Sequence record: SRR20825006_662
DNA length: 33,010 nucleotides
Strand: one strand, 5' to 3'
Within the stretch, counting starts at the first letter, position 1. Each line of letters begins with the position of its first letter. The notes under the pieces are model-generated. The model ran no database searches. It worked only from the letters and a program-made list of their open reading frames with translations, and had not been told where the DNA came from. Positions 1 to 20,988 of the stretch are shown here, piece after piece. The position numbers and the translations under genes are program-made.

Positions 1-21
1 GGCTCATTAAATCAACAGCCC

Positions 22-74
22 GATAGGCTTTCAGCCTGTGATTGCGAGGAACACAGGCTGGAAACCTATCCCAC
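22..74. repeat. REP-like imperfect palindrome (GATAGGCTTTCAGCCTGTG ... CACAGGCTGGAAACCTATC CCAC)
   Basis: Arms 22-40 and 52-70 are near-complementary; a related half-copy lies at 32976-32995. Confidence 0.7.
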
Positions 75-156
75 AATTTCGCTCCAACACTTCTTCTTCG
101 CTCGTTGCTAAACTGCGCCGGCAATGTTGTCATCGTTCTTTTGAAAAGCCCCGTTC

Positions 157-1053
157 ATGGCAGATTTTACCCCAACCCAGGGCCGGTATCTTTCTTACAT
201 TCATGCCTACACCGTAGGCTTCGGATTGCCGCCCGCGGAATCTGAAATCGCGGAGGCCATCGGCGTCTCACCACCGTCGGTCAACCAGATGATGAAGACG
301 CTGCAAAAGAAAGGACTCATTCATCGCGAGCCTGGGGTCCCGCGGTCGATTCAGATTCTCATTGACGAATCGCTGATCCCCAAATGGTCTGGTGGCAAGA
401 TCACTCGGGTCGTCCGCGAGTGGGTGATGACGAATTCCGAAACAAAGAAGCAAGCCCGGCCAACACTCGCGAACAAGAACCACAAGCCACCCGCTGAAAT
501 CTACGTCATCAAGATCACGCTGTCGGGCTCCAAACCGCCGATTTGGCGACGCATCGAAACCGGTGACGTTTCCTTGGCCAAATTGCATGAGTTGATTCAG
601 GCCGCAATGGGCTGGACAAACTCTCACCTGCATCAGTTTGTGATCGGGGAAGCCCACTATGTGGATCCGCGTGGCCTCGAGCATGGGATGATGGATTGGG
701 CCCAATCCTACTCAGGAATCACGATCGCCAAATTGGTGGCAATGCATGGTGCCAAGCTGAAGATGCAATACGACTATGATTTCGGCGATGGCTGGACACA
801 CAAGATCGTGTTGGAAAAAATTGTTGCTCCCAAACGCAACGTCACCTATCCATGTTGCACCGCCGGTAAAAACGCGTGTCCGCCGGAGGATGTTGGCGGC
901 ATCTGGGGCTACTACGAATACCTCGAAGCGATTAGCAATCCCAAGCATCCTGAGCACGAGGAGTACATGGAATGGAGCGGTCCATTTGACGCGACTGAAT
1001 TTGACAATGCAGAAGCAACGCATCTCATGCAAACGGGAATGCCGTCCTGGTAG
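157..1053 (+). CDS. LexA-like N-terminal winged-HTH fused to a plasmid pRiA4b ORF-3 family domain
   Basis: N-terminus FTPTQGRYLSYI...PPAESEIAEAIG...TLQKKGLIHREPGVPRSI resembles the LexA DNA-binding domain. C-terminus has IKITLSGSKPPIWRR, LHELIQAAMGWTNSHLHQF, YDYDFGDGWTH and ACPPEDVGG, typical of pRiA4b ORF-3. Confidence 0.85.
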   Translation: MADFTPTQGRYLSYIHAYTVGFGLPPAESEIAEAIGVSPPSVNQMMKTLQKKGLIHREPGVPRSIQILIDESLIPKWSGGKITRVVREWVMTNSETKKQARPTLANKNHKPPAEIYVIKITLSGSKPPIWRRIETGDVSLAKLHELIQAAMGWTNSHLHQFVIGEAHYVDPRGLEHGMMDWAQSYSGITIAKLVAMHGAKLKMQYDYDFGDGWTHKIVLEKIVAPKRNVTYPCCTAGKNACPPEDVGGIWGYYEYLEAISNPKHPEHEEYMEWSGPFDATEFDNAEATHLMQTGMPSW

Positions 1054-1059
1054 AGAGAC

Positions 1060-2226
1060 TCAGTTCAATAGCCCACGTTTCCGCAACGATGACTTGAGCA
1101 TGCTGAGCGTGGGGTGGGCTTTGGCCATCTTCTCGGCACAGTCGCGAGCAAGCTTCTTTCCCGCTTCGCCGCCAACTGCGTCTCGCAGATCGGCGAGGAT
1201 CTCGGCGGCGGCCTTGTAGTTTTCCGTGCCGCGAACGGCCACGATCTTCTCGGCTTTGGCAAGCCATGTCGTTGGCGATTCTTTCATCTTCTCCATTCGG
1301 GCTTGGCGTTCTTTCTCTGCCTTGGCGGCTTCTCGCTTGGCTCTTGCAAGCTCCTTCTTCCTTTTCACTGCGTTCGCCTTCTCTCGCAATTCGTTAGCCG
1401 AAGAAAGCAGCGTCTCAAGCGAGTGACCTCGCACCGTCGTGGGCCAAGCAGGGGCCGATCCGGATTCGCGAATCTCGGCAAGCAATTCGGCTTTGAGTGA
1501 CGCGGGATCCTCTTTCAACAGCCGACGCAACAAAACTCGCGAACGCGCTTCGCTTATCGAACGTGACCAATTTTGAATCGGATCTTCCTCGTCGGTCTGC
1601 GGAGCAAGCTTCGGCACGCCATCCGCAGCTGCCTTCAACGTCAACGGATCAAGTCCAAAGAAAGGCAGTAAATCGCTGCTGCCTGATGGCATCGTGTCCA
1701 GACCATGCGGCACAGGAGGTTCGATCGTCTGCTCCGGAAATTCGTTGTCATCGTACGCAGCACACAACCACAGCAAGTACAACGCTCGCAAATCACCATC
1801 GATCAGTTGCTCGCGGACTTTCGCCAGCGCATCCAGATAATCCTTAAACTCCCAGACGTCCTCAATGCTTCCTGACTCATGATAGGGACACACACTGAGG
1901 ACTCCCGCTTTACCCTTGGGATCCTTTTTCCAAGAAATCCCGTCGCAATTGAGAAACCGCTTGAGCGTCGATTTTGAAAATGGCAGGCCACTTGGCAATC
2001 GCAGTCTGATCTCACGAGAACCGTAGTTCGCGTACGCCAGATATACGTTAAAGCCACGCCGCAGCAGGCCATCAACGTCACCACCAAACGAACTGTAGTG
2101 ATACTCAACCGACATCTCCCAACGAGAAAGCTCTGAACGCGACGATTGCTGTGCAGCAAACTCAAGTTGTTTGTCATCCAATGCTCGGTCAACGGCACGG
2201 AAGGCCACATACTGGTATTCGCTCAT
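1060..2226 (-). CDS. Hypothetical protein (388 aa) with a charged C-terminal coiled-coil
   Basis: Long ORF with ATG start (MSEYQYVAFRAVDRAL), convergent with the upstream gene (6-nt gap); no catalytic motif recognised. Confidence 0.8.
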   Translation of the reverse strand: MSEYQYVAFRAVDRALDDKQLEFAAQQSSRSELSRWEMSVEYHYSSFGGDVDGLLRRGFNVYLAYANYGSREIRLRLPSGLPFSKSTLKRFLNCDGISWKKDPKGKAGVLSVCPYHESGSIEDVWEFKDYLDALAKVREQLIDGDLRALYLLWLCAAYDDNEFPEQTIEPPVPHGLDTMPSGSSDLLPFFGLDPLTLKAAADGVPKLAPQTDEEDPIQNWSRSISEARSRVLLRRLLKEDPASLKAELLAEIRESGSAPAWPTTVRGHSLETLLSSANELREKANAVKRKKELARAKREAAKAEKERQARMEKMKESPTTWLAKAEKIVAVRGTENYKAAAEILADLRDAVGGEAGKKLARDCAEKMAKAHPTLSMLKSSLRKRGLLN

Positions 2227-2456
2227 GGGATCTCAATATTCGAGTTGGTAGTGGACGAGGCGACGATTCCTGGCGTCGCGAACTGGTTGCCTCGTCCAAA
2301 ACGGATCGCGACTGGGCTGACCTGTGAACCGACAATGAACTGAAAGGGTTTTCGAGCGGCAGCAGATCGTATTCGACCCAACGTGGCAAACACCAAACAG
2401 GGCCCCAAAAGACGCCGGGGGTCTTTTTCGGATTCACGTTGGGTGACAATTCCGGC

Positions 2457-2496
2457 TTCGCCTCGGAACTGAAGCGGGAACGGTTCAGGTTGGTTC
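2457..2496 (+). repeat. 40-bp direct repeat, copy 1
   Basis: TTCGCCTCGGAACTGAAGCGGGAACGGTTCAGGTTGGTTC, 38/40 identical to 10771-10810. Confidence 0.85.
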
Positions 2497-2684
2497 AACA
2501 GCGACAACACCGATTGTCCGAGGCAGACACAACGCTCATCTCAATTCGCAGGGTCGCGTTGACCCAATTCAAAGAGCGACGCGTTCGCTGCGTCTTTGTG
2601 GTTGGCCATCGACCTACGAAAAAGCAGCGAACCTCGCTGACTGCAAAGTGTCTTTGCACCAGTCCGTCAATCCTGGAAATTAAG

Positions 2685-2765
2685 ATGCCCACCTTCACTT
2701 CATCCACAACATCAACAACCGACTCGTCTTTCGAGGACGAGGCGGGGAGGGTGTGTCGTGAGTGA
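2685..2765 (+). CDS. Putative Thr/Ser-rich leader peptide (MPTFTSSTTSTTDSSFEDEAGRVCRE)
   Basis: 26-codon ORF with 11 Thr/Ser in the first 15 codons, ending about 23 nt before an intrinsic terminator upstream of the EF-Tu paralogue; RBS is weak. Confidence 0.5.
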   Translation: MPTFTSSTTSTTDSSFEDEAGRVCRE

Positions 2766-2788
2766 CGGTTGATTCCGAAACGATCCAC

Positions 2789-2825
2789 AAAGCCCGCCCG
2801 GTGACTCACTTGGCGGGCTTTTTTT
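2789..2825 (+). terminator. Intrinsic terminator / candidate attenuator upstream of the EF-Tu paralogue
   Basis: AAAGCCCGCC-CGGTGACTCACTT-GGCGGGCTTT: GC-rich stem followed by a 7-T run (2819-2825). Confidence 0.8.
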
Positions 2826-2865
2826 GTGGTTTGCTGATTCTCGATTGATGGCGGTTTCCTGTTTC

Positions 2866-2946
2866 TTCGTTCCCGATCATCTGGCGCTCATGCGAGCGAA
2901 AAGGCGATGGAGGCTGCTCACCTCCACCGCTGGCGATCGGTGCGAA
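2866..2946 (+). promoter_or_regulatory. Candidate multi-stem RNA structure in the 5' UTR of the EF-Tu paralogue
   Basis: Outer stem CCGATC (2873-2878) / GATCGG (2935-2940), extendable by TTCGT/GCGAA; it encloses CGCTC-ATGC-GAGCG and GCG-A-TGGAGG...CCTCCA-C-CGC hairpins. Confidence 0.35.
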
Positions 2947-2977
2947 ACGCTTTCTTTGAAAAAGGAGTTTGCGAGCT

Positions 2978-4195
2978 ATGGTTCAAAACGAAATGACGCC
3001 GAAGACCTCGGTCAACGTTGGCACGATCGGTCACATCGACCACGGCAAGACGACGCTGACTTCCGCGATCCTGCGCGTTCAAGCCGAAAAGGGTCTGGCC
3101 AAGTACAAGTCTTACGAGTCGATCGCAAAAGGCGGCATTGTTCGCGACAAGAACAAAACCGTTACCGTGATCGCTTCGCACGTGAAGTACGAAACCCCAT
3201 ACCGCGATCCGACGCATCCAGGTCGCCGATACGCCCACATTGACTGTCCCGGTCATGCCGACTACATCAAGAACATGATCACTGGTGCCGCCCAAATGGA
3301 CGGCGCAGTGTTGTTGGTGTCGGCTGCCGATGGCCCGATGCCGCAAACTCGCGAACACTTGCTGTTGGCACGGCAGGTTGGCGTGCCTCACTTGGTCGTG
3401 TTCATGAACAAATGCGATCTGGTCGAGGACGCTGAATTGCTGGATCTGGTCGAAATGGACTTGCGCGAAATGCTCAGCGATTATGGATACCCCGGCAACG
3501 AGATTCCGGTGATTCGCGGGTCTGCAAAGCAAGCTCATGACGACCCAGCCAACCCTCAAGCGATCGCATGCATCGAACAATTGTTGGACGCACTCGATGT
3601 TTCGATCCCCACTCCACGACGGATGGTCGACAAGCCGTTCTTGATGCCAATCGAGAATGTCTATTCGATCGCCGGCCGCGGCACGGTCGTGACAGGCAAG
3701 ATCGAGCAAGGCGCCGTGCGTGCAGGTGACGCAATCGAGATCGTTGGTCTGACCAGCGAGACCGGCAGCGACGTGATCACGCAAGTGGAATCATTCGGTG
3801 AAGTCTTGGAAGCAGGTCACGCTGGCGACAACGTCGGTGTGTTGCTTCGCAAGACCGCTCACACGGCGATCACGAAGGGGCAGGTGTTGGCGAAAGCCGG
3901 CAGTGTGACTCCGCATCGAGAATTCGAAGCGGAAGTCTATGTGCTGCAGAAAGAAGAAGGAGGCCGTCACACGCCGTTCTTTGATGGCTACGCACCTCAG
4001 TTTTTCTTTCGAACGACGAACGTGACCGGCAGTGCATCGGTGATGGACGGCGTGCAGATGGCAATGCCCGGTGATGGTGTTCGCTTGAAGATCGCACTGA
4101 AGCAACCGATCGCTGTCAGCGACGGCGACCACTTCGCCATCCGAGAAGGCGGCAAGACCGTCGGCTCGGGTGTCGTCACAAAAGTCGTCGCCTAG
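2978..4195 (+). CDS. tuf: Elongation factor Tu paralogue (divergent)
   Basis: [16 protein letters not shown] (G1), [25 protein letters not shown] (G3), NKCD (G4), GSA (G5), GGRHTPFF and [23 protein letters not shown] at 2961-2967 supports the ATG at 2978. Confidence 0.95.
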
Positions 4196-4208
4196 TTCAT
4201 CAAACGCA

Positions 4209-4247
4209 AAACGCCCGCGGTGGAGCAATCTGCCACGGGCGTTTCTT
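4209..4247 (+). terminator. Stem-loop after tuf (probable terminator or stabilising hairpin)
   Basis: AAACGCCCG-CGGTGGA-GCAA-TCTGCCA-CGGGCGTTT with a GCAA tetraloop; the U-tract is short and interrupted (TTTCTT). Confidence 0.6.
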
Positions 4248-4332
4248 CGTGTTCTCAGCCATACCTTGTCACAGATCAAAACTTGTTATCATCTCCGACA
4301 GGATCCACGACGGGACTTGTGAGTAGAGACCG

Positions 4333-6210
4333 ATGGCGAATCAACAAAACACCTCCAAGGCTTCACCGCCGTCGAAAATACTGCTTGATGAGTTATTCCA
4401 GAGTGAAGACGATCAGTTCCTGGACTTGTTCGTTCAGTTTGAATCGTACGAATTCTTGAGACACTTCTCGATCCAGTGGATGGAGGACGCGCGGCCCTGG
4501 GCGAGAAAACAGTTGATCGAATACCTTCACGGTAGTCTCAACCATCCTGGACACGAGGTCGTCTTCAAACGAACGCTTAAGCTGGCCATCGAGCGAAATG
4601 ACGACGAACTGGTTGCTCACTTTTTGGTGGCGCTCGATGGATTGGTGCGTCGAAATCGAACGACATCGTACGTTTACAATTATCGAACCCGCCAAAGTTA
4701 TCGCCGTGAGTACTTGTTCGCCAAACCAAATCGAACCGTACGCGAGCAAAGGAACAGGTTCCAGGAATTCACCTACGGCAAGCAAACATATCGAACGCCG
4801 CTTCCAGACTTATTGAATCGGCCGCACAACCGATTGTTCTCGCAAAAAACACGTGCCCACCTGCGCCGCCGAGTCTGGCGTTATTTCCGCTTCATGGCTT
4901 ACCAGGATGCGCCCCGCTACACCGACGCGATGGTCAACGCCTTCGCACTCTACGACAATTCCTATTTCTCGTCCGGAGAGGCGATCCTGGACAATTGGTC
5001 GCTCATGCACGCTGGTTTCTTTCATGCACCGGAGATCGCGTTTACGCCCTCGCACACGAACATCGTTGCCGGGCAGTCGCTGTCGAATTTGAAGCCGTCA
5101 CCCTATCTGCCGTCCGTTTGGGACGGCGACGAGGTTGCGGCGAAGCTGTGGTTGCTATTGGCAGAAGCGAACAGTCAGTTCATCCGCTTGTGGACGATTG
5201 ACATGCTGCGGCAAAGACACGCCGATTGGCTATCAAAGATCTCCATCGAAGAACTGGTTCAACTGCTTGCTTGCAGTGATGCGACGGTGGGTGAATTTGC
5301 AGTGGAACTGTTCCGAAATCATGAGTCGCTTGCTCACGTGGAGATGGCAACTTGGCTTCGCTTGCTACAAGAAGCCGATTCTTCGGTGCTGCCCACGATT
5401 TGTGAGGCAATGCAAACGCATACCGATCCCAAACGTCTCAGCGACGACCAACTGATCGAAATGACAATGGCTCGTCCGGCCGCCGTCGCGTCCCTGGGAT
5501 TGGCATGGCTCCGAGCACGACAGGAAATGCGTCGAATTGAGCCTGACAAGTTGGCGAAACTGTCGGAAAGCAAGTGCGTTTGGGAGTCCGAAAAGATTGC
5601 AGACTGGGCACTCGACCAGCTAGCGACCTCCGAGTCTTATTCGGCCGAACGTTTCGTCCAATTCTTCGATTCGCCAACGCAGCCTATTCGGCGATCAGCT
5701 TGCAAATGGCTAGAGTCTGCGAAAACGGAAGTGACAGCGGCCAAAGGTTCGGAGGCACTTCAACTTGACCCCGTGTTGTGGGCAAAACTGTCGGAGACAC
5801 CCTACGACGAAGTTCGTTTTTCTTTGATCAAAGTTCTGGCGGACGTTCTCGATCATGCTCCGGAACGATCTCATGAGGGAGCAATTGGTGACAGCATGAA
5901 TCTGGATCGCTGGATGCGAATCTATTGTGCCGTCATCTTGTGCGTTGATCGCGGATCGCGAACCAAGCCAAAAGCGATTCGACAACTCGCCAAGATCGCC
6001 GAGCAGGATCCGCAGCGATGTGAGAGCGTGATGCCGATTCTTGCAATTGCTGCTCGTTCGATTCGCAATCCCGAACGCTTTGCTGCTTTGTCGGCAATCG
6101 CGACACTGGTGCAGCAGAGAACAGAACTTCTGGAAGTCGTTTCTCGATGCATGCCCGAATGGAATTGGTGTGAAAGCGACGGTCAACTCGCTAGCGGAGA
6201 GGGAGCATGA
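4333..6210 (+). CDS. Large alpha-helical (ARM/HEAT-like) protein; putative retron-associated component
   Basis: 625-aa ORF with a Leu/Ala/Trp-rich helical-repeat-like C-terminal two-thirds; ATGA overlap with the next gene. The fold is inferred from composition and context. Confidence 0.75.
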   Translation: MANQQNTSKASPPSKILLDELFQSEDDQFLDLFVQFESYEFLRHFSIQWMEDARPWARKQLIEYLHGSLNHPGHEVVFKRTLKLAIERNDDELVAHFLVALDGLVRRNRTTSYVYNYRTRQSYRREYLFAKPNRTVREQRNRFQEFTYGKQTYRTPLPDLLNRPHNRLFSQKTRAHLRRRVWRYFRFMAYQDAPRYTDAMVNAFALYDNSYFSSGEAILDNWSLMHAGFFHAPEIAFTPSHTNIVAGQSLSNLKPSPYLPSVWDGDEVAAKLWLLLAEANSQFIRLWTIDMLRQRHADWLSKISIEELVQLLACSDATVGEFAVELFRNHESLAHVEMATWLRLLQEADSSVLPTICEAMQTHTDPKRLSDDQLIEMTMARPAAVASLGLAWLRARQEMRRIEPDKLAKLSESKCVWESEKIADWALDQLATSESYSAERFVQFFDSPTQPIRRSACKWLESAKTEVTAAKGSEALQLDPVLWAKLSETPYDEVRFSLIKVLADVLDHAPERSHEGAIGDSMNLDRWMRIYCAVILCVDRGSRTKPKAIRQLAKIAEQDPQRCESVMPILAIAARSIRNPERFAALSAIATLVQQRTELLEVVSRCMPEWNWCESDGQLASGEGA

Positions 6211-7880
6211 AGGTCAGCATGAAATACGCAGGCCGAAGCGCTCTGCTGGACATCAGCGGCGGTGCAAAGCTATTGCAAATGGCTCCCAACTTGGCTCGCC
6301 AGCAAGTTTCGTTCGATGGGTCGCTGAACCGACCGATCGAATTTCGCGAGGCGATCAGTGCGCTGCACGACATTGTGATCAACGACTTGCGATTCCAACC
6401 ACGGGATAAGACGGCGTACCAGCAATGGCTTTTAGAACAGCGAGCACGTGAACGTACAATCCGCCAGACTGCGATGGACCAGAAGCGTCGTGACATCGCC
6501 AGCGGCATCGTCGACAAGCCGACCGCGGAGCTAAAGAAAGCTCACGCCGATGCACTCAAACGCTATTGGTCCGCTCGCAAAACACTCGATAAACGACTGC
6601 GGAAAGAGAACGAGGCACTATGGCGCAAGTTGATGCCGTACGACCCAGTCATCACGGTGGCCGAAGATGTCGTATTTTTTGAATGTTTCTCGGTCGACCA
6701 ATCCAGCTATGGGTGCTTGACCGTCGACCGCGGTGACGGGTTTGGCGAAAGTGGCCAAACGCAGCTGGGAACGACGAACGTTGATTATTCCTGGGACCTT
6801 TACGACAGTTTCCAATCGCTCCGAACGTATCGTCAAACGCGATTTCAGATCGACCCCGCCGCGTTTGAAGTCTCGACCTCTGGCGGTGGCAATCAACATC
6901 GCGAGGAGAAGATTGACTTGCCCAGCGGTTGGCTCAGTGGATTTGTGCGACTGCAATCGGCGATGGCGATGCCAATGAAAAAAGTAACGCTACCGCTTGC
7001 AACGATGTATTCCCTGCTTGCGTTTTTGAAACGCAACAAAGCGAAGACCAGCCCCAGAGCGATTCGCTTCGAGTTACGAGAGAACGAGACACCGCGTTTG
7101 GTTTTGGAACCGTGGGGAAACACGATCGAAGCGATCGGCGCAACTTATCAAGGTTTGCCCACGGAACCGATTCGCGTTTGGGGGCGGCGGCGTTTGTTGA
7201 CGCTTTCCCGCTTGTTACCGCTTGCCGATTCGGTCGATGTCTATTTGCTCGGCAGCGGACTACCAAGCTTCTGGGTGGTGCAAATGGGTCCGATGCGTTT
7301 GACGCTAGGCTTAAGCGGTTGGACGACGAACGACTGGTCCGCTGGCAGTTCAATCGACATGCTGATGCCACCTCAGAAACCTGAACCTACCTTGGTGGCG
7401 TCGGTTGCCGAACTTCTTAGCAATCGCCTTGTCGGAACCTTGGATGAGGTCACTGGTCATGCGGGCGTCCCATCGGAGTTGGCGTCGTCGGCACTGAACC
7501 AACTCGCACTTCGCGGCCAAGTCATCTATGACTTGCACGCTGGTCGCTACCGTTGGCGGAGCGTTTTGCCGATGGCACTTTCCGACAAAGAAATCGGGCC
7601 GGCCCACCCCGAGTTGCAGGCGGCGGAGTCATTGATTCGAGCGGGCAAGGCTGAAGTGCAAGAAGCAATGGCGGGACCACGTGGCGGAATCATATTGACG
7701 GGTCGAGTGGAGGCGACGCCCTGCGAAACATTGGTCGATGGTGATGGCGTGATTCGTCGAGGCAAATGCCTATGCAAATGGCACCGCAAGACTGGGATTC
7801 GCAACGGCCCTTGCCGTCACATCCAAGCATTGCGGATGCGTCACGAACATCAAACTCGTGCCAAAATTTCGCAAGCTTGA
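6207..7880 (+). CDS. SWIM zinc-finger protein; putative retron-associated effector
   Basis: C-terminal CLC-x12-CRH (CxC...CxH) SWIM motif; N-terminal DPVITV...FFECFS.D.SSYG segment; lies immediately upstream of the retron ncRNA. Confidence 0.85.
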   Translation: MKVSMKYAGRSALLDISGGAKLLQMAPNLARQQVSFDGSLNRPIEFREAISALHDIVINDLRFQPRDKTAYQQWLLEQRARERTIRQTAMDQKRRDIASGIVDKPTAELKKAHADALKRYWSARKTLDKRLRKENEALWRKLMPYDPVITVAEDVVFFECFSVDQSSYGCLTVDRGDGFGESGQTQLGTTNVDYSWDLYDSFQSLRTYRQTRFQIDPAAFEVSTSGGGNQHREEKIDLPSGWLSGFVRLQSAMAMPMKKVTLPLATMYSLLAFLKRNKAKTSPRAIRFELRENETPRLVLEPWGNTIEAIGATYQGLPTEPIRVWGRRRLLTLSRLLPLADSVDVYLLGSGLPSFWVVQMGPMRLTLGLSGWTTNDWSAGSSIDMLMPPQKPEPTLVASVAELLSNRLVGTLDEVTGHAGVPSELASSALNQLALRGQVIYDLHAGRYRWRSVLPMALSDKEIGPAHPELQAAESLIRAGKAEVQEAMAGPRGGIILTGRVEATPCETLVDGDGVIRRGKCLCKWHRKTGIRNGPCRHIQALRMRHEHQTRAKISQA

Positions 7881-7913
7881 AAACTGATTCAACACCCCTT
7901 ACAACCAAGGAAT

Positions 7914-8143
7914 AAAGATTAGAGCGAGGTGACGATTCAAGCCTACCTTGCTGCGGCGATCCGCCGTGGTTGAGTTTTGCTTCTCATTCGTCCCCAAGGT
8001 CGTTGTTCGTTTGGCCACCACCGCATGGTAGTGCGTCGACCAGGACAAGCCGAGGCTTTCGACGCACTACCATGCGGTGGTGGCCTTGGTGAACGACCTC
8101 GGTCCGCAGACGTGAAGTTGAATCGTCACCCGCTCTGGTCTTT
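7914..8143 (+). ncRNA. Retron msr-msd non-coding RNA
   Basis: Terminal inverted repeats AGAGCGAGGTGACGATTCAA (7921-7940) / TTGAATCGTCACCCGCTCT (8118-8136), extendable to 7914/8143. Unpaired G at 7941 is the candidate branch point. msr hairpin at 7951-7969, perfect 27-bp msd stem 8013-8039 / 8059-8085, directly 5' of a retron-type RT. Confidence 0.9.
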
Positions 8144-8151
8144 TCAATACG

Positions 8152-9780
8152 ATGGGCCTGTTTCGAGTCTTAAAACAGTTCTTTGCCCCTGGACGCAATC
8201 CGCCTCAGGATGCGTCGCGCTCCCAGGCAACCGCTCCATCATCGATCGACTATCGTGACCTGACACCGCCAACGACTCCGGTTGTCACGACCGGCCCCGA
8301 TTATGTTCCATTGAACAACTTGCCTGCCACACCTCCGCGGGAATCGTCTGGTTTTGATGGCCTGGATGCGAGCCAGTTTCAACCGCTGACGCAAGACGAA
8401 GCGATGGAAGCGACCGCCGAACCGGGGTGGCGGACGGCCTATTGGGATCCGCTTGGTGTCATCCCTTCTGCGGATTTACCGCGAATTCGAGTGATCGACC
8501 AAACAATGGTTGGAATGGGGCTGATCGACGCCGATGAACTGGCGCAGATCCACAGCCTCGGCGAGGAGATGTCGAGGTTTCGAACCGACTACTACGCGGT
8601 CCAAGACGCGGGTAATCAGGCGGTCCAGCAAACCAGAGACGCTCGAACGGCCAGAAAAGCCGAAATGAAGCAGCGTGCTGCTGAACGGAAGAAGCAACAC
8701 GATGCCGATGTCGCTCATCGCAAAGCCACTGACATCGTGTTTCTGGGGCGAGGTGTGTCACGCGGACTTGCCGACCGTCGATCTAACATCGAGCGGTTGA
8801 AATCCAGCGAACTACCAGTGCTCTCATCGCCTGCCGATGTCGCAAGTGCATTGGAAATCTCAGTGGGAACCCTTCGTTGGTTGGCCTTCCACCATCCGGC
8901 CAGCAAGACGACTCACTACCACACATGGACGATTGCCAAACGCTCCGGCGGAGACCGAACGATCAGTCGTCCGCAAAAGAAACTCGCCGCAGCCCAGCAA
9001 TGGATTCTTGATTCGCTACTCAGCCAAATCCCAGTTCATGATGCTGCACATGGATTCGTTCCTGGCCGCAGCACTTTGACGGGAGCCCAGCCACATGTCA
9101 GATCTCAGGTCGTGGTCAACATGGACCTTCAAGACTTCTTTCCTACGATTGATTTCGCCCGTGTAGCCGGCTTGTTTCGCGGCATGGGATATTCCCCGGC
9201 TGTGGCCACGATCTTCGCATTACTCTGTACGGAGTCTCCTCGACGTGTGATTCGCAGTGGTGGCGAAACACTGTACGCCGCCGTCGGAAATCGTTCTCTT
9301 CCGCAAGGCGCGTGCACCAGCCCGGCACTATCCAACTTGATCACCAAGCGACTGGACAAGCGACTTGCCGGAACAGCAAAATCCATTGGTTGGCAGTACA
9401 CGCGTTACGCTGATGACCTAACGCTTTCGACCAAAGTGAACTCGAATAAAGTTGGCTACGTCCTTGCCCGAGTTCGCCATATAGCGAAGGAAGAGGGCTT
9501 TGTCGTCAAAGAATCTAAAACGAGAGTCCTCCGGCAATGCACTCAGCAATCTGTGACGGGCATCGTCGTCAACGATCGTCCGTCAATTGACCGCAAGACC
9601 ATTCGAGAAATACGGGCGATTTTGCATCGAGCGAAATTTGAAGGTTTGGAAAAACAAAACCGGATTGATCACCCGAATTTCTCTGGCTGGGTCAGCGGCA
9701 TGATCGCCTACATCAACATGGTCAACCCGCAACAAGGCGGCAATCTTCGTCGCCAATTCGAAGAACTGAGCATGGGGTAA
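8152..9780 (+). CDS. Retron-type reverse transcriptase with long N-terminal extension
   Basis: IAKRSGGDRTI, AAHGF, GAQPH (variant of the region-X NAxxH), DLQDFFPTI, LPQGACTSPALSN, YTRYADDL and VTGIVVN (region-Y VTG); no intron maturase or endonuclease domain is evident. Confidence 0.95.
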   Translation: MGLFRVLKQFFAPGRNPPQDASRSQATAPSSIDYRDLTPPTTPVVTTGPDYVPLNNLPATPPRESSGFDGLDASQFQPLTQDEAMEATAEPGWRTAYWDPLGVIPSADLPRIRVIDQTMVGMGLIDADELAQIHSLGEEMSRFRTDYYAVQDAGNQAVQQTRDARTARKAEMKQRAAERKKQHDADVAHRKATDIVFLGRGVSRGLADRRSNIERLKSSELPVLSSPADVASALEISVGTLRWLAFHHPASKTTHYHTWTIAKRSGGDRTISRPQKKLAAAQQWILDSLLSQIPVHDAAHGFVPGRSTLTGAQPHVRSQVVVNMDLQDFFPTIDFARVAGLFRGMGYSPAVATIFALLCTESPRRVIRSGGETLYAAVGNRSLPQGACTSPALSNLITKRLDKRLAGTAKSIGWQYTRYADDLTLSTKVNSNKVGYVLARVRHIAKEEGFVVKESKTRVLRQCTQQSVTGIVVNDRPSIDRKTIREIRAILHRAKFEGLEKQNRIDHPNFSGWVSGMIAYINMVNPQQGGNLRRQFEELSMG

Positions 9781-9901
9781 GGCACGTCATTTCATTAAAC
9801 GAAGCCCGCAGACCTTCGATCCGGAATTGCACTGAGAGTTGCAATTTTACTTCCGCGGGGAGAAACCAAAGATCGCTATGCAACCGAAACCGCCTGAATT
9901 A

Positions 9902-9935
9902 CCGAGCAAAGTCGAGACTTTTGCTCGGGATTTTG
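9902..9935 (+). terminator. Hairpin downstream of the RT (possible terminator)
   Basis: CCGAGCAAAGTC-GA-GACTTTTGCTCGG followed by GATTTTG; lies between convergent genes. Confidence 0.35.
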
Positions 9936-10186
9936 CCGCGATGTTGACCGATGATTGTGTAGCCTGTCAGGCGAAGCGATAAGGGCATCTCGCCATCGTC
10001 TGGATCACAGGGACGTTGGTTACCCGCAATATTTCATTGAGCCTGGAATGATGGATTGCCCATCTGGCAGCCGGTCATATCGGTCGGCCAGTCACCGGTC
10101 TGCCACCTCCGTGGCACACTGAAACCATCTTCGGAAGTGCAGCGGAAGTAGGCAATCAACGTTTCATGACCGTCTGGGACGATGCT

Positions 10187-10591
10187 TCAGTCAGCCATCA
10201 GTTCTGGGTCATCGAGATCCGTTTGTATCCAGCTTTCTGAGACGTGGATGTCAGTCGTCTCCAGTGAACCGGGACCGACGTTGTGGTATTTGTGCGGGAC
10301 GTTCGCTGGACCGAGCAAAATGTCGCCCGCTGTTGCTTCGATCTTTTTGTCACCAATGGTGAACAACGCGTTCCCGTTGCGGACGATGAAAATTTCGTCG
10401 TATGGATGAACGTGCCAGAGAGGCCCGGCTCCAATTTCATCCGTGCAATAGAACAAGACGGTCACTTCCGTCCCGATGTCCTTTCCCTGAACGTCTCCCT
10501 TCCAGAGTTGATCGTGTGATGCCCAATCAGAACGGTGCAAGATTTTTGGCTCACGACCAATTGCGTTTTTGGTGACGGCGTCGCCTTTCAT
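10187..10591 (-). CDS. Cupin domain protein
   Basis: GPLWHVHPYDEIFIVRNG and GDILLGPANVPHKYHN cupin motifs; start taken at ATG 10591 (the ORF is open to 10609). Confidence 0.85.
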   Translation of the reverse strand: MKGDAVTKNAIGREPKILHRSDWASHDQLWKGDVQGKDIGTEVTVLFYCTDEIGAGPLWHVHPYDEIFIVRNGNALFTIGDKKIEATAGDILLGPANVPHKYHNVGPGSLETTDIHVSESWIQTDLDDPELMAD

Positions 10592-10770
10592 GACAAGCCT
10601 CCAATTCATTGGTGTAGCGGAAAGCGAAACGGCAAATCAATCTTCCAGTAGGTGTAATTGCCGATGACATCGAACAACCGACAATCGCGGGTGCTCGGAA
10701 GTCCCAAAGGAGATGAGCCCAAACGGAGGCAGGGGTCATCGTTGGGCTCGCGGAGGGCGATCACCCAGGT

Positions 10771-10810
10771 TTCGCCTCGGAACTGAATCGGGAACGGTTC
10801 AGGTTGATTC
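10771..10810 (+). repeat. 40-bp direct repeat, copy 2
   Basis: TTCGCCTCGGAACTGAATCGGGAACGGTTCAGGTTGATTC; it overlaps the stop codon of the minus-strand gene ending at 10799. Confidence 0.85.
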
Positions 10811-11296
10811 CGCTGTGGGATGGTAGGGATTGTCAGAAGCAGACAGATCCGTTGCAACTTTGGCTTCGTCTTCCGGAGTGGCTTCGATTGGTGAGTCGAC
10901 CGGTCTCTGGAACATCATGGCACGGATCACAAACAGGGCGATGGCGACAACGCAGAAAAGCAAGAACGCCTGGAAGCCATAGATCAATGGACCAAGAGAT
11001 CGGTTGGCACCATCGACCGTCAAACCCATGTAGCCTTCCTGGGTCATCTCAGCCGGATGTGCGTCCGCCCACTCGCGTCGGATCCGCCACTTCTCTTCGA
11101 TCTCGGATGCAGACCACTGCGTTGCAATGATCGCCAAACCAAAAATCGCAATCACTTTCAGAATGCGACGAAAAGCATCATGCTGGATCACTGACAACAC
11201 AATGAGCACGCCAACTCCTGCATACAGGGTGGCGGTATAGCCCCAAGAAAAAGCGTTCGTCCGAGACGATTCCCAAACCTGTCCAAACGGGTCCAT
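10799..11296 (-). CDS. Hypothetical membrane protein (about 3 TM segments)
   Basis: Hydrophobic segments; AAGGAG RBS (11306-11311, minus strand) before ATG 11296; C-terminal DNPYHP tail. Confidence 0.75.
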   Translation of the reverse strand: MDPFGQVWESSRTNAFSWGYTATLYAGVGVLIVLSVIQHDAFRRILKVIAIFGLAIIATQWSASEIEEKWRIRREWADAHPAEMTQEGYMGLTVDGANRSLGPLIYGFQAFLLFCVVAIALFVIRAMMFQRPVDSPIEATPEDEAKVATDLSASDNPYHPTAEST

Positions 11297-11309
11297 TTGC
11301 GTTGGCTCC

Positions 11310-12125
11310 TTAGCCAGGGATGTCCGAATCAGCCAAACCCTCACTCAACGAGCCGCTGATTTGAATGGAATGACCATAGAAGATATCACCATCGTCGTGC
11401 CAAAATTCAAACTCACCGTCGGGACCAATTGAGATCGATTCCAACACCATACGACCCAAAAATTCCTCCGCGTCCATCTCATTTCCGACCTCCTGCCAAT
11501 CGTTCGCCAACTCTAACTTCTCGGCAACCGCGAACGCATCGATTTTTTTCTGCCATTGCGTCGCATCACGAAAAAGTGTTTCTGCAGTTTCGAGCTGGCT
11601 CGCAATGTCCAAACTCTCATCTGATTCGATCGAGAGTTCGACTTCGATTCCGTTCCAATCCGCGAGACCTTCGAACCAGCCAATGCTGCGGTTCAACGTG
11701 AGGTCGCCGAACCGTTCTGTTTTAACGACGACCGGTTGTTCGAGCTCTTTCGCAACAGTTGCGAGCTCGCGGTTTACGATGTCTCTCTTCGTCAGCTTGG
11801 ATACAACCGCACGAGTCTGATCGACCGACAACAAGACTTCGAACCGGTGCAGCGTCCCCGCCGCGAATTCACCGAAATAGTCAGCCTCTACCGGAACGGG
11901 CCGAAGCAACAACAGCGTATTGCGACGTAACGGTTCTCCCACAACCAGCCAAGCCGCAAGCGAAAACAGATGAACAGAGTAGCCTTCCGATCCGGGCCAG
12001 CCACTCTGACTCGACTGGGAAACGACCCCTTCGACTTCCACCAACTTGGACGAATACTCACAACCTGCAGGGTCCACCGCCGAGAGGTTGTCGAGGTCTG
12101 GGAATTCAAAACGCTCGCTCATCAT
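11310..12125 (-). CDS. DUF2262 domain-containing protein
   Basis: Acidic protein with FGDLTLNRSIGWFEG...W and C-terminal FEFWHDDGDIFYGHSI...G, matching my recollection of DUF2262. Confidence 0.75.
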   Translation of the reverse strand: MMSERFEFPDLDNLSAVDPAGCEYSSKLVEVEGVVSQSSQSGWPGSEGYSVHLFSLAAWLVVGEPLRRNTLLLLRPVPVEADYFGEFAAGTLHRFEVLLSVDQTRAVVSKLTKRDIVNRELATVAKELEQPVVVKTERFGDLTLNRSIGWFEGLADWNGIEVELSIESDESLDIASQLETAETLFRDATQWQKKIDAFAVAEKLELANDWQEVGNEMDAEEFLGRMVLESISIGPDGEFEFWHDDGDIFYGHSIQISGSLSEGLADSDIPG

Positions 12126-12401
12126 TCAAATCCGTGTTGCTCCATCGACAAAAGCCCAATTGTAAGCGTATCGATGTTTCTGATCACGCTTGAAGTGTTC
12201 ATCTAGTCAACAACTCGACCTCTCGATGTTTCCCAACCGAAGGCGACTTCACCGAGCGGCGTTCGGACCGAATGTCAGTAAAAGCTTTGGCGAACGCCAA
12301 AACGGCGAATGTATGGGCAGAGGGTTCAGGTAATTACGTGAGACAAACCTCACAGTTGCCGTTGCTGGATCAATGGAACGGACAGTGATCCCACTGACGT
12401 G

Positions 12402-12797
12402 TCACCAGTTGTTCCAGGTGATTGAGAACTGCAAGATGCTCGCGATCGTCACCCAAACTAAGTACGGAATCTGTGCGAAAGTGACCCAACAATGGTGTGG
12501 CCAGATGGCTTTCATTGCCCACAGAATCGTGCTCCAAACGATCGCAATATCGAGAGCAGCAAGCGGGAGGTTTCGCAAACCGAACTGAATTGGCGTGAAG
12601 GCAATGTTGGCAAGCAGATTGATCGCGAAAGGAACCGCGACAGACCATGGGATTTGCTTACGGAAAACGCGATAGAAAACGTAGCCGAACGTGACCAAGA
12701 TGATTGGATAGAGGATCTGCCAAATCAGTCCGATCGTCGATGGCTCGGGGGTCCAAGTCGGTTTATCGAGGGCGTCGTACCAGTCTCGCCAGGTCAT
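12402..12797 (-). CDS. tspO: TspO/MBR family tryptophan-rich sensory protein
   Basis: WYDALDKPTWTP, IWQILY, NIAFTPIQFG and PYLVWVTIA motifs; start at ATG 12797. Confidence 0.9.
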   Translation of the reverse strand: MTWRDWYDALDKPTWTPEPSTIGLIWQILYPIILVTFGYVFYRVFRKQIPWSVAVPFAINLLANIAFTPIQFGLRNLPLAALDIAIVWSTILWAMKAIWPHHCWVTFAQIPYLVWVTIASILQFSITWNNW

Positions 12798-13087
12798 GAA
12801 TGGAAGCTTGATAAGGAAATGGAAAACGTGCGAACGCAGACTACATACAAAAGTAATCGAATGACGACACCGAGTGTTCGAAGAGTTTTGCCAGGAGCAA
12901 TGCGTGGCATGAATCACCTTCTTCGATAAAGTACCGTTTGAGGCTGACAAGTCGTGCCTGATCAGCAAACTGCGTTGCCAGACGCAGCAACCCCAATCTT
13001 GAATCGATGCATCAAAGATGCACGCACGTTGCGATATCCGAAGAGTGAATTTGTATCACTTCAAATTCAGATCGACCACAAATCTTT

Positions 13088-13807
13088 TCAAGCAACGCAC
13101 ATCGCGTAGAACGCCAAAGAGCCGACTGCGGACATTTGAATCACCAGCAGTAGGTACGCGATCGTTCGTTTTGGTCCCAACCGGATGATCCAGATGCCGA
13201 TGATGATCTCAAGTGCGTTCAGCAAAACCGCCAGCCACTGCATGTCCAAAACATATTGTTCAAGTGGTATGCTCAACAATGCCGTTGGAAGAAATGCGGG
13301 CATTTCGACCAACATCATCATGAGACCAAAAAGGACATTGCCAATATCCTCATCGCCGACCATCCAGCTATAGGGCAATGCCATGCATGCAACCAAGGTC
13401 ACCTCGGCCATGCGATGTTCAGGATGCCGTGCACCGAACGCAGCGAGATACGCAAACGCCCCGATGCAAACGATCCCGCTCAACACGATTGGAAACTTCG
13501 CAAGCATCGGTATCGCGATTGCGACACCAGCGGTGAGAAGCAACAAGGCACGAACCGAGAACCGCATCGGTGTCCGCTGCGAATCGTCTAGTTTTCCTGG
13601 CGTAATGGGCAGCCACGGTAGAGCCAAGCAGAAAACCAAGGAAGCAATCGCCGACCACATAGGCAAATTCCAAAGCAGTGGCGACGGACGGCTTTGGTCG
13701 GAATCCGTCCATGCGTAAAAGTCGGGCATGAACCATCCAACGAGCAAACTCGCCGCGATGAATAGCGGGTAGATCGGAACTCGTGCTGCCAATTTAGAAA
13801 TCTCCAT
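13088..13807 (-). CDS. Hypothetical multi-pass membrane protein
   Basis: Many hydrophobic segments; contains RFSVRALLLLT, a motif common in planctomycete membrane proteins; GAAGGA RBS-like sequence upstream. Confidence 0.75.
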   Translation of the reverse strand: MEISKLAARVPIYPLFIAASLLVGWFMPDFYAWTDSDQSRPSPLLWNLPMWSAIASLVFCLALPWLPITPGKLDDSQRTPMRFSVRALLLLTAGVAIAIPMLAKFPIVLSGIVCIGAFAYLAAFGARHPEHRMAEVTLVACMALPYSWMVGDEDIGNVLFGLMMMLVEMPAFLPTALLSIPLEQYVLDMQWLAVLLNALEIIIGIWIIRLGPKRTIAYLLLVIQMSAVGSLAFYAMCVA

Positions 13808-18616: not shown

Positions 18617-19843
18617 TTATGAAACGGTTGTACAGGGTTGTACCGCAGCACCTTCGATCCATCGCATGACCAGCAATGACAAAGACCCCAGGACCGCGAA
18701 ACCGCCTACCAATGGTAAAATGGTGCCGTTGTAACTGTGACCAATCAGGATACCGAGCGGCACAGAGATCAATGTTGAAATCGAACCAACCAGTGCGGAT
18801 CCTATCCCAGCGACATGCCCCAATGGTTCCATCGCCAAGGAATTTAGGTTTCCAAACAAGATTCCGATGGCAAAGAATGTCGCTAGCAGATAAGCCATCG
18901 TGCACCACAGCGGAGGACTTCCGGCGTGAAGAAATGCGAATCCAAAGAAGGCGGCCGAGGTGACGGCGAGCGATAGCATCGCGTGGCTGATCAATGCTCT
19001 CATGCCAAAACGCATTACCAAATTGGCATTCATCAGCGAGGCAACACCGGCGGCCGATGCCAACACGGCGAAGTAGATCGGAAACAACGAACCGAGTCCG
19101 TATTGTTGCTGAAAGATCTGAGCCGCCGAACTCAAAAACCCCAAAAACGCCCCCGACACCAAACCCGCGACCATCGTGTAGCCAAACGCGATACGATTGG
19201 TGCAAACTTCGCGTGAGACGTGAAGGATTCGTTGCAGCGAGAACGGCATTCGATGCGACGGCAAGAGTGTTTCCGGCTGTCGCCATGCGAACCAACCAAA
19301 CAGCATCAAAGCCAAGACGGCGAGCACCGCAAAAATCGCTCGCCAATTCGCCACCAAAAGAATTGCTTGGCCCAAAGTCGGCGCGATCACCGGCACCAAG
19401 ATAAAAATGGTCATCACGAACGACATCACTCGTGCCATGGCCCGCCCTTCGTATTGGTCACGGATCAACGCCAACGAAACGCTGCGAGGTCCGGCGACGC
19501 CGAGTCCCTGAACGAAGCGTCCCACCAACACCCATGTGAAGCTTTCGGCGACCAGCGAGATCATCGACCCAACAACGAACAGACCGAGCCCGGCGCACAA
19601 CGCCGTCTTTCGGCCAATGCTGTCTGACAGTGGTCCAAAGAACAGTTGCCCCAGAGCCATGCCGAGGAAAAGCAATGACACGATGAGTTGGCTGTCGTTC
19701 TCATGCTTGGCCCCGAGTTCCTCACCGATGATTGGCAAGGCGGGCAACATCGCATCAATCGCCAACGCGACGAGGGCCATCATCAACGCCATCAAGGTCA
19801 CGAACTCACCCAACGGCAAGGCAGGCTTTTGTTTTAAATCCAT
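18617..19843 (-). CDS. Bcr/CflA family MFS multidrug efflux transporter
   Basis: ALAIDAMLPALP, GQLFFGPLSDSIGRK, GRFVQG and PETL motifs; about 12 TM segments. Confidence 0.9.
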   Translation of the reverse strand: MDLKQKPALPLGEFVTLMALMMALVALAIDAMLPALPIIGEELGAKHENDSQLIVSLLFLGMALGQLFFGPLSDSIGRKTALCAGLGLFVVGSMISLVAESFTWVLVGRFVQGLGVAGPRSVSLALIRDQYEGRAMARVMSFVMTIFILVPVIAPTLGQAILLVANWRAIFAVLAVLALMLFGWFAWRQPETLLPSHRMPFSLQRILHVSREVCTNRIAFGYTMVAGLVSGAFLGFLSSAAQIFQQQYGLGSLFPIYFAVLASAAGVASLMNANLVMRFGMRALISHAMLSLAVTSAAFFGFAFLHAGSPPLWCTMAYLLATFFAIGILFGNLNSLAMEPLGHVAGIGSALVGSISTLISVPLGILIGHSYNGTILPLVGGFAVLGSLSLLVMRWIEGAAVQPCTTVS

Positions 19844-20142: not shown

Positions 20143-20988
20143 TCAGTTCGGTGCGAAGTTTGGCCGATCGTGCGAATTCACATAAGCGGCGATGTCGTAT
20201 GCCTCTTGGTCGGTCAAATCGGCGTCGTCCAGAGGCATAGCGACCTGAAGCCAGGACGCCATTTTCTGCACTCCAGCCAGCCCGGCACCGTCGTTGAAAG
20301 ATTGATCGCCCCAAACCGGCGGCCCATCATCGCTTCCTAGTCCATCGTCCGAATGACACGAAGAACAACGGTCCATGTAGAGCGACTCACCTCGCTCGAC
20401 ACTGGGTGGCGTAGGAGGTTCGTCCAGAAGGGACATGTGGTTGGGACCGAGCGGCTTTGCCGGGTTCATCTTCAATGGAGTGCCCTCTGATAGCCAAGTG
20501 ATGTAAGCGGCAATCGCGACCGGCACCTTGGAACCATTCGGTGGCCGGGTCCCATTCTGACTTCGGATAAAACAGTTCAAAATCCGATCTTCGAGCGTGA
20601 TCACGCTTTTCTCTCTGGGGGAGTAAGCGGGGTACGCCGCCGCAACTCCGATGAATGATCCCGCCTCTTTATGCCGACCGGCATCCAAGTGACAGGAGGT
20701 GCACTTCAACGAATTGCCGACGAATGGACTCGATAGCGGATGCGTGTTGGTTGTTTTGACCAGCGACTCACCGAGCCTCACGATTTCGCCGAGTTCTCCA
20801 GGCGGGTAGGGCTGGTTCGATGACGATTGATTCGCTGCAACCAATCGCACCGGAACGGGACGGCTGGTTGCTGCCCGAGATGCCGTATCCTCATTCACCC
20901 CCACCATCCACCCCAATGTCCCCGCGACCATGCCGCACGTGAGGGCGAGCCGCAACTTTGATGATCGAAAAATACCGAGCCTACGCAT
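20143..20988 (-). CDS. Diheme c-type cytochrome, TsdA (thiosulfate dehydrogenase)-like
   Basis: CTSCH and CSSCH heme motifs, EDRILNCFIRSQNG, PPVWGDQSFNDGAG and AMPL; N-terminal export or anchor segment. Confidence 0.8.
   Translation of the reverse strand: MRRLGIFRSSKLRLALTCGMVAGTLGWMVGVNEDTASRAATSRPVPVRLVAANQSSSNQPYPPGELGEIVRLGESLVKTTNTHPLSSPFVGNSLKCTSCHLDAGRHKEAGSFIGVAAAYPAYSPREKSVITLEDRILNCFIRSQNGTRPPNGSKVPVAIAAYITWLSEGTPLKMNPAKPLGPNHMSLLDEPPTPPSVERGESLYMDRCSSCHSDDGLGSDDGPPVWGDQSFNDGAGLAGVQKMASWLQVAMPLDDADLTDQEAYDIAAYVNSHDRPNFAPN

Follow-up and report, generated by a model that had tools for sequence, protein, structure and literature searches.

The closest described counterpart of the gene analysed here is EF-Tu3 of Streptomyces (gene tuf3; 'actEF-Tu2' in Atkinson 2015), which is likewise a divergent, non-essential second elongation factor Tu (EF-Tu) found beside a housekeeping copy. 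In S. coelicolor this gene is reported to be expressed under starvation or stress and its product to be resistant to GE2270A (PMC12309360, PMC4342817). Actinomycetes and organelles are known to have alternative EF-Tus, and amino-acid operons to have leader-peptide attenuators. Streptomyces tuf3 itself is under positive stringent control and is not known to be under a leader-peptide attenuator. Here we describe a planctomycete gene for a second EF-Tu, with a putative attenuator in its leader, that lies in a 33,010-nucleotide (nt) stretch of DNA from sequence record SRR20825006_662 (the window; positions are counted from its first letter). The gene product is named EF-Tu2 here, and its sequence served as our query (P0001). 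What appears to be new is the combination of an alternative EF-Tu with ribosome-mediated attenuation, each of which is known separately. In open-access papers and preprints we found no main text that describes the planctomycete EF-Tu2 family and no title or abstract opening that describes a leader-peptide attenuator on a tuf gene, and the main text of a survey of translational GTPases describes neither (PMC4342817).

The gene occupies positions 2978–4195 on the plus strand and encodes a protein of 405 amino acids (aa) with no internal stop codon. The protein scores 562.5 bits against the TIGR00485 equivalog model, above its cut-off of 522.4 for a bacterial EF-Tu, and the Pfam domains GTP_EFTU, D2 and D3 are all found (E = 1.1e-50, 6.9e-12 and 2e-33, respectively). 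Motifs G1 (GHxDHGKT), G2 (Thr61), G3 (DCPGH, with His84), G4 (NKCD) and G5 (SA(L/K)) are intact in the window protein; across the family, the key residues 19–25, 80–84 and 135–138 are kept in 121/121 paralogues and T61 in 120/121 (residue numbers follow E. coli tuf throughout). This bears out an earlier interpretation made from the letters of the window alone (the sequence-only reading), which had described G1, G3 with its catalytic histidine, and G4 as intact and the G2 threonine as apparently retained; every protein string that it quoted, including REGGKTVG, was found in the translation of the gene. We place the start at ATG 2978 and not at TTG 2969, because AAGGAG lies at 2962–2967 and the sequence GAGC.ATG is invariant in 31/31 aligned loci. 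The surroundings are not those of a housekeeping tuf (tRNA genes, tuf, secE and nusG, or the str operon), since a retron and unknown genes adjoin EF-Tu2, and no tRNA genes were found in the window.

The nearest genome compared (G001, 97–98% identical to the window in the flanks) has a single EF-Tu match, which is 63% identical to the window protein. It lies between tRNA-Thr/Tyr/Gly/Thr on one side and tRNA-Trp, secE and nusG on the other, and is therefore the housekeeping tuf. Its switch I reads IAKGGTVRDATKTVTI, and both KTVT and GGTVRD were found in 25/25 housekeeping copies collected for comparison with the 121 paralogue sequences; a rewritten effector loop thus characterises planctomycete EF-Tu in general. 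On this comparison the odd switch I is a mark of the lineage and not of the paralogue, and the sequence-only reading, which had aligned the protein to E. coli EF-Tu and taken the loop for a paralogue feature, was misled by its choice of reference. The mistake is an easy one to make. A unique 11-residue motif in planctomycete EF-Tu was reportedly described by Jenkins and Fuerst in 2001. The switch-I signature of planctomycetes is common to EF-Tu2 and its housekeeping counterpart, so EF-Tu2 arose independently of the Streptomyces EF-Tu3, to which we liken it by description and not site by site.

Other substitutions do separate the two groups. Position 216 is D in 25/25 housekeeping copies, compared to N in 95 and G in 23 of the 121 paralogues; R230 is replaced by K in 110/121, and G257 by Q in 112 and by S in eight. 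M260 is replaced by S, T or A, the residue at 262 by G, A or S, K263 by E, Q, A or D, and R/K327 by T or A, while G280K (99/121), Y331F (119/121), N355G (120/121), A33R, V64A, E68K and S312K are also paralogue-specific. Unchanged in both groups are all G motifs including T61 and H84, the pocket residues H66, E215, T228 and N273, T382, and the kirromycin positions L120, Q124, Y160, G316, Q329, A375 and E378. Judged by these site counts, the aminoacyl-A76 pocket is remodelled in EF-Tu2 (D216N, R230K, G257Q, M260S, 262G, K263E and G280K). We take this pocket to be the binding site of GE2270A-type thiopeptides, with contact segments at 215–230, 256–264 and 273–277. Of the pocket and antibiotic-position changes picked out by the sequence-only reading, those at 216, 230 and 257 are thus specific to the paralogue, but R233Q is not (Q is present in 12/25 housekeeping copies), nor is F218Y a paralogue-wide trait (39/121); only switch I and R233Q proved to be shared with planctomycete housekeeping EF-Tu. 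The insert that it had noted before RRYAH is present in the window as seven residues, PYRDPTH, after switch I (3197–3217, plus strand), but is a sub-lineage feature found in only 4/121 family members (P0001, P0002, P0005 and P0007).

In a protein search, 7999 EF-Tus matched at E ≤ 1e-100. The 120 best-matching of these 7999 are 68–95% identical to the query and closer to it than is the housekeeping copy of the same genus, and 120/120 carry the paralogue signature; they are annotated only as 'elongation factor Tu' and come from Allorhodopirellula, Rhodopirellula, Novipirellula, Roseiconus, Mariniblastus, Blastopirellula and Gimesia. Among the genomes searched, no member of the EF-Tu2 family was seen outside the class to which Pirellulaceae and Gimesia-like genera belong. 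A quick IQ-TREE analysis of 92 rows sets the paralogues apart from housekeeping tuf, on one side of a branch with SH-aLRT support of 100; the root of this tree is unsure, with E. coli (a long branch) falling inside the housekeeping side. The distribution is patchy. In a phylum-wide sample of 401 genomes only five have a match of at least 70% identity to P0001, and all five also have a housekeeping match at 66–67%. Within the family the paralogue was found in 36/401 genomes at E ≤ 1e-178 and, counted otherwise, in 25/271 high-quality genomes, 18/126 genera and 5/13 species of the genus; it is absent from G001. The five same-genus carriers each also have a housekeeping tuf, 94–99% identical to that of G001, bringing to 10/10 the carrier genomes checked in which the two genes co-exist (five phylum-wide and five same-genus, the window's own genome not being among them). 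The housekeeping tuf of one carrier, at G473:C2:2372730-2373921, is in two overlapping pieces (residues 1–194 and 185–397), due to a frameshift or an assembly error.

The ratio of nonsynonymous to synonymous substitution rates (dN/dS, method NG86) has a median of 0.105 over 531 paralogue pairs compared to 0.112 over 112 housekeeping pairs, which indicates purifying selection. Taken together, the distribution, the co-existing housekeeping tuf and the dN/dS therefore point to an accessory gene that is functional and under purifying selection, and we regard it as nearly certain that EF-Tu2 is an accessory functional paralogue. The suggestion of the sequence-only reading that this is a specialised EF-Tu other than the housekeeping copy is upheld by its identity to the G001 tuf, separate clade, patchy occurrence, co-existing housekeeping gene and selection regime. 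If EF-Tu2 were a spare duplicate without a role of its own, retained by chance or in slow decay, degraded copies and orphan leaders such as those seen in G427, G519 and G424 might be expected; however, a dN/dS of ~0.1, equal to that of housekeeping tuf, a fixed substitution set common to 121 members and an elaborate leader kept with compensatory changes make this very improbable.

DNA homology between loci of different genera (77–88%) runs from ~2614–2700 to ~4245–4254 of the window and extends past the start codon. As delimited by this homology, EF-Tu2 is a gene that travels as a self-contained cassette of ~1.6 kilobases (kb), and its own promoter-like motif, leader and 3' terminator-like hairpin make the unit self-contained. 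The order of elements is promoter-like motif, leader open reading frame (ORF) rich in Ser and Thr codons, terminator/antiterminator, second conserved hairpin, Shine-Dalgarno sequence (SD), coding sequence and terminator. The promoter-like motif is bipartite, GAACC-N14-GTGTC (2629–2652, plus strand), lies ~33 nt 5' of the leader ORF and is present in 29/32 non-identical leaders; its spacer is 14 nt long in 27 leaders, fixed in length and variable in sequence. We assume a likeness to promoters of extracytoplasmic-function (ECF) sigma factors; a scan for sigma-70 promoters found none. Matches to the looser pattern GAAC[CGT]-N12-17-GTGTC occur elsewhere in the window at 13552–13574 (plus), 19677–19700 (minus) and 20398–20421 (minus), which is about the number expected by chance, and could be promoters of the same sigma factor. 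At the 3' end, a terminator-like hairpin with a U-rich tail (4209–4244, plus strand; RNA fold z-score −2.6 for 4193–4335) precedes the retron genes.

The leader ORF (2685–2765, plus strand) has 26 codons and would encode MPTFTSSTTSTTDSSFEDEAGRVCRE, followed by its stop codon. An ATG-initiated ORF of 15–35 aa is present in 32/32 non-identical leaders, and over leader codons 2–14 the fraction of Ser plus Thr is 0.615 in frame, compared to 0.256 and 0.034 in the other two frames. Leaders of Gimesia-like genera are rich in Ser and those of Pirellulaceae in Thr and Ser, and the run is followed by a conserved D-S-S. Within the leader ORFs ACA makes up 45% of Thr codons and TCA 51% of Ser codons, compared to 15% and 13% in twelve genes of the window. 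The leader stop lies 27 nt 5' of the terminator arm in 19/32.

Behind and partly within this ORF we found a four-segment attenuator (2723–2825, plus strand) made up of segment 1 (2723–2728, within the D-S-S codons), segment 2 (2736–2746), segment 3 (2792–2802), segment 4 (2808–2818) and a run of seven T (2819–2825). In an alignment of 32 leader sequences (A1), the OFF state, in which 1:2 and 3:4 pair, has 98.0% of cells paired with five pairs changed on both sides, a value reached in 0/500 shuffles, and the ON state, the antiterminator 2:3, has 95.3% of cells paired. Pair 58–119 changes from GC to AU in exactly three loci (L049, L050 and L105), in which terminator pair 119–137 goes from CG to UA; the compensation is three-way and links segment 3 with segment 2 as well as with segment 4. 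RNAalifold predicts 1:2 and 2:3 when segment 4 is left out and 1:2 and 3:4 when it is included. A short upstream ORF enriched in Ser and Thr and of predicted translation is thus found together with mutually exclusive terminator and antiterminator helices, as in known attenuators, and from this pattern we consider it likely that the leader works as a transcription attenuator. The generic terminator scan missed the leader terminator because of an internal mismatch, and Rfam gave no match in positions 1–13000 of the window at E ≤ 0.1.

A search of 151 genomes of the family with a covariance model built on the attenuator gave 17 hits. All 11 hits at E ≤ 1e-7 belong to EF-Tu2 or its remnants: seven precede an intact paralogue, one a paralogue cut by the contig end, one a frame-disrupted copy and one a 3' remnant, and one is an orphan leader. 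Among the other six, which score less well, five only resemble the terminator and the sixth lies 5' of a divergent EF-Tu. By this search, the leader belongs to the EF-Tu2 gene alone. Signs of gain and loss of the cassette are seen in the orphan leader (L129, G424:C1:2117235-2117365), which has no EF-Tu2 behind it, at L120 (G519), where no more than the final ~86 codons of EF-Tu2 follow the leader, and at L121 (G427), where the EF-Tu2 behind the leader is frame-disrupted.

The arrangement resembles attenuators of the trp/thr/his type in its short ORF rich in the sensed codons, its mutually exclusive 1:2, 2:3 and 3:4 helices and its terminator with a U-run. It differs from them in that it would control a translation factor and not a biosynthetic operon, in that the leader stop lies after segment 2 and not between segments 1 and 2, and in that it sits in a phylum for which no described example was found. 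A second comparison is with the leaders of erm, cat and ABC-F genes, in which a ribosome stalled on the leader ORF likewise turns on a translation-rescuing gene. The peptides made from these leaders are drug-dependent arrest peptides, whereas the conserved feature of the EF-Tu2 leader is a run of Ser and Thr codons.

A further stretch of ~150 nt between the leader terminator and the gene is also conserved. It includes a hairpin of 10 base pairs with the invariant loop CUGCUCA (2904–2930, plus strand), which in an alignment of 31 sequences (A3) is 91% paired, with 7/10 pairs changed on both sides and 0/500 shuffles as high. The loop and the invariant GAGC(A) immediately before the EF-Tu2 start codon are complementary and could form a pseudoknot; the 3' strand of the hairpin, UCACCUC, presumably resembles the 16S rRNA 3' end and could be an anti-SD mimic. 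The SD AAGGAG (2962–2967) is itself preceded by a pyrimidine stretch capable of pairing with it (together 2952–2967, plus strand; minimum free energy (MFE) folds). In the MFE folds of 27/31 loci GGAG is at least 75% paired, compared to 0.54 when the upstream sequence is shuffled, a weak sign of SD sequestration. Only one RNA run holds any of the sequence (8% of its words), as contigs of a relative; these may include DNA, and ends, strand and level are not readable from them. One such RNA-library contig, of 252 nt with 15 differences, spans 2705–2956 and so crosses the terminator, which is a weak hint of read-through at most, and a second covers 4105–4245. RNA bins of high depth are conserved tuf segments of other organisms.

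In the mechanism that we propose, with no ribosome on the leader, or with one running fast to the leader stop, the RNA would take up the 1:2 and 3:4 form and transcription would end at 2825 (terminator 2792–2825). A ribosome stalled in the Ser/Thr run or in D-S-S would cover segment 1, so that segment 2 would be freed to pair with segment 3, the terminator would be blocked and the EF-Tu2 mRNA would be completed. The signal would thus be slow decoding early in the leader, caused either by a shortage of Ser- or Thr-tRNA or by a general failure of aminoacyl-tRNA (aa-tRNA) delivery, and the likeliest trigger would be an inhibitor that blocks formation of the ternary complex, a situation in which one insensitive copy would suffice. 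We give an even chance to the proposal that EF-Tu2 is a stall-induced replacement factor for times when housekeeping EF-Tu cannot deliver aa-tRNA, and, by analogy, judge the case that it is a functional counterpart of Streptomyces EF-Tu3 to be equally balanced. That its purpose is to be an inhibitor-insensitive replacement is more tentative, and we would put this at somewhat below even.

Several features are consistent with such a replacement role. EF-Tu2 keeps its GTPase motifs together with the T-stem and kirromycin-site residues that were checked, and should thus have all that GTPase action, ribosome binding and T-stem contact require; its fixed changes at 216, 230 and 257 fall on positions that the sequence-only reading had linked to GE2270A and pulvomycin. 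A second EF-Tu copy is reported to help only against drugs that block the ternary complex (PMC6685928). A changed pocket with untouched kirromycin sites fits this rule. If the model is true, the cassette would be a small natural device that senses stalled elongation and responds by making a spare translation factor, and the family would be a natural experiment on the residues of the EF-Tu aminoacyl pocket that tolerate rewriting with function kept. Such rewriting bears on the action of EF-Tu inhibitors and on the engineering of EF-Tu for non-standard amino acids.

A number of observations weigh against a replacement role or against the attenuator on which it depends. We take G257S and G275A to be substitutions that give resistance to GE2270A, and R230C, R333C and T334A to be substitutions that give resistance to pulvomycin. 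Of these positions, only 230 and 257 are changed in EF-Tu2 (G257S itself being carried by 8/121 members), G275, R333 and T334 being the same in both groups. We know of no resistance test of Q at 257, and found no paper in the open-access literature on G257S with GE2270 and EF-Tu. The codon run has the look of an amino-acid-specific attenuator, and since drug-sensing leaders usually encode arrest peptides, the leader fits a role in Ser and Thr delivery (considered below) at least as well. The bias towards ACA and TCA may be no more than a by-product of selection for RNA without structure. Genes for biosynthesis or resistance are not conserved near EF-Tu2 among the loci. In 5/38 loci, all from the most divergent branch (L104, L107, L108, L110 and L111), neither terminator nor hairpin was found by the patterns used, and the sequences are related to each other, so counts over loci are not independent. 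Finally, an ectopic resistant EF-Tu is reported not to have protected S. coelicolor (PMC12309360).

The leader codons and the pocket also suggest a different role, in which EF-Tu2 is specialised for small polar aminoacyl groups, that is for Ser- and Thr-tRNA, and forms part of a homeostatic loop: slow decoding of Ser and Thr in the leader would induce a factor that delivers those tRNAs and thereby re-closes the attenuator. Classical attenuators, such as the trp, thr and his leaders, sense the very amino acid that the genes under their control provide, and Ser/Thr sensor codons are present in 32/32 leaders across families, with the D-S-S conserved after the run. The fixed changes in the aminoacyl pocket include D216N/G, a bulkier residue at 257 (G257Q) and a polar one at 260 (M260S); however, pocket residues H66, E215, T228 and N273 are unchanged, and no dedicated tRNA or synthetase gene is conserved near EF-Tu2. 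A precedent is offered by the EF-Tu2 of nematode mitochondria, which binds only Ser-tRNA by means of an evolved pocket (PMC4013460). This factor and SelB resemble the planctomycete EF-Tu2 in being EF-Tu-family proteins with a pocket adapted to one aminoacyl group (PMC4013460), but they also recognise unusual tRNA bodies or an mRNA element, whereas the planctomycete protein retains the normal T-stem contacts and no domain has been added to it. With T-stem-binding Q329 and E378 unchanged there is no sign of a special tRNA body, and the likeness to the nematode factor is one of general precedent. We consider Ser/Thr specialisation, the leading alternative, unlikely, if not negligibly so, and rate as a little less probable still that EF-Tu2 is the first bacterial EF-Tu besides SelB to be dedicated to one amino-acid class, with an attenuator of Ser and Thr codons setting its synthesis. 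If that were true, the cell would be tuning the specificity of an elongation factor, and not only tRNA charging, to its amino-acid supply.

A conserved tRNA gene near EF-Tu2 was looked for among the loci and none was found. An ARAGORN tRNA call overlapping the leader of L089 is a single case and was taken as chance. At another locus (L095, genome G764), EF-Tu2 is preceded at a distance of ~6 kb by an array of 19 tRNA genes (459–3509 of the locus, minus strand).

The EF-Tu2 cassette of the window and, separately, a type XIII retron lie in a strain-variable islet (2497–9896) that is absent from G001, where positions 1–2496 and 9897–12281 of the window are matched at 98% and 97% identity. G001 has in its place an alternative segment of ~9.3 kb with an IS66-family transposase and a 1283-aa MshEN-domain protein, in which PADLOC found nothing. 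Diverged copies (83–93%) of a ~530-nt sequence bracket the islet, at 2454–2496 (the left copy being only 43 nt) and 10768–11297, with matching copies in G001 at G001:C1:6120025-6120067 and 6129723-6130251. This suggests that cassettes may be exchanged in the islet by recombination between the ~530-nt repeats.

The retron gene set (4333–9780, plus strand) consists of HEAT/ARM (4333–6210), SWIM/DEDE (6207–7880) and reverse transcriptase (RT; 8152–9780) genes, matched by the PADLOC models HEAT-ARM_XIII, SWIM_XIII and RT_XIII at E = 1e-248, 4.8e-180 and 5.4e-161. The combination of HEAT/ARM, SWIM and RT agrees with the published description of type XIII, the group of Mx162 and Mx65 (PMC7736814). 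A candidate site for the msr/msd RNA is the 272-nt gap at 7880–8152. EF-Tu2 lies on the same strand as these genes, 137 nt upstream of the HEAT/ARM gene and in the same strain-specific islet of 7.4 kb, as would be expected if it were a fourth component of the retron. However, none of the HEAT/ARM, SWIM and RT genes lies within ~9 kb in the other EF-Tu2 loci (0/37, ~20 kb each, with two weak SWIM-like hits at 25–29%), a promoter-like motif and a terminator belong to the cassette itself, and the words 'EF-Tu' and 'elongation factor' are absent from the main text of the classification paper (PMC7736814). A fourth component is thus close to refuted, and extremely unlikely in our view; by the count over loci, the retron is a neighbour of EF-Tu2 and not its partner.

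The strain-variable islet and the retron beside the gene could also fit a role in conflict, with EF-Tu2 acting as a back-up that restores translation, or as a decoy that baits the attacker, when a phage, a toxin or abortive infection disables housekeeping EF-Tu or tRNAs. In three loci of the same genus a large helicase-nuclease lies 3' of EF-Tu2, single neighbours elsewhere hit models of DarG/PARG, RtcB, RlaP, AbiEii and viperin-like proteins, and the orphan leader, 3' remnant and frame-disrupted copy attest to gene turnover. However, defence families do not recur: a Pfam and PADLOC census of the 108 ORFs within three genes of the paralogue at 18 loci found no family in more than three loci, the three being the same-genus loci with the helicase-nuclease, and across 38 loci no neighbour gene is shared beyond genus level. 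The loci of genera g337 and g13 have ordinary contexts that are conserved within each genus, and PADLOC gave no hit for EF-Tu2 itself. T382, which we take to be the site of Doc, and switch I are the same as in housekeeping EF-Tu, so neither offers an obvious way of evading the toxins known to target EF-Tu. We therefore consider a role in conflict quite improbable, and continue to prefer a stall-induced replacement factor.

In the three same-genus loci, a protein of ~1160 aa is encoded 3' of EF-Tu2 on the same strand (L080 10726-17759, L081 3927-8669 and L082 3848-8632). Three neighbour ORFs match AAA_11/AAA_12 helicase (superfamily 1) and MTES_1575/DUF559 nuclease domains (PADLOC models MkoA, MkoC and Hhe), and we assign these matches, presumptively, to the ~1160-aa proteins. 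On the other side of the cassette, the window has a gene (157–1053, plus strand) in which an N-terminal winged-helix domain (LexA/MarR-like) is fused to PRiA4_ORF3 (E = 1e-61); it adjoins a gene of 388 aa without known function on the opposite strand. Positions 1–116 hold a short repeat with more than 25 partial copies (74–100% identity) on both strands across the G001 chromosome, resembling repetitive extragenic palindromes (REP) or miniature inverted-repeat transposable elements (MITE).

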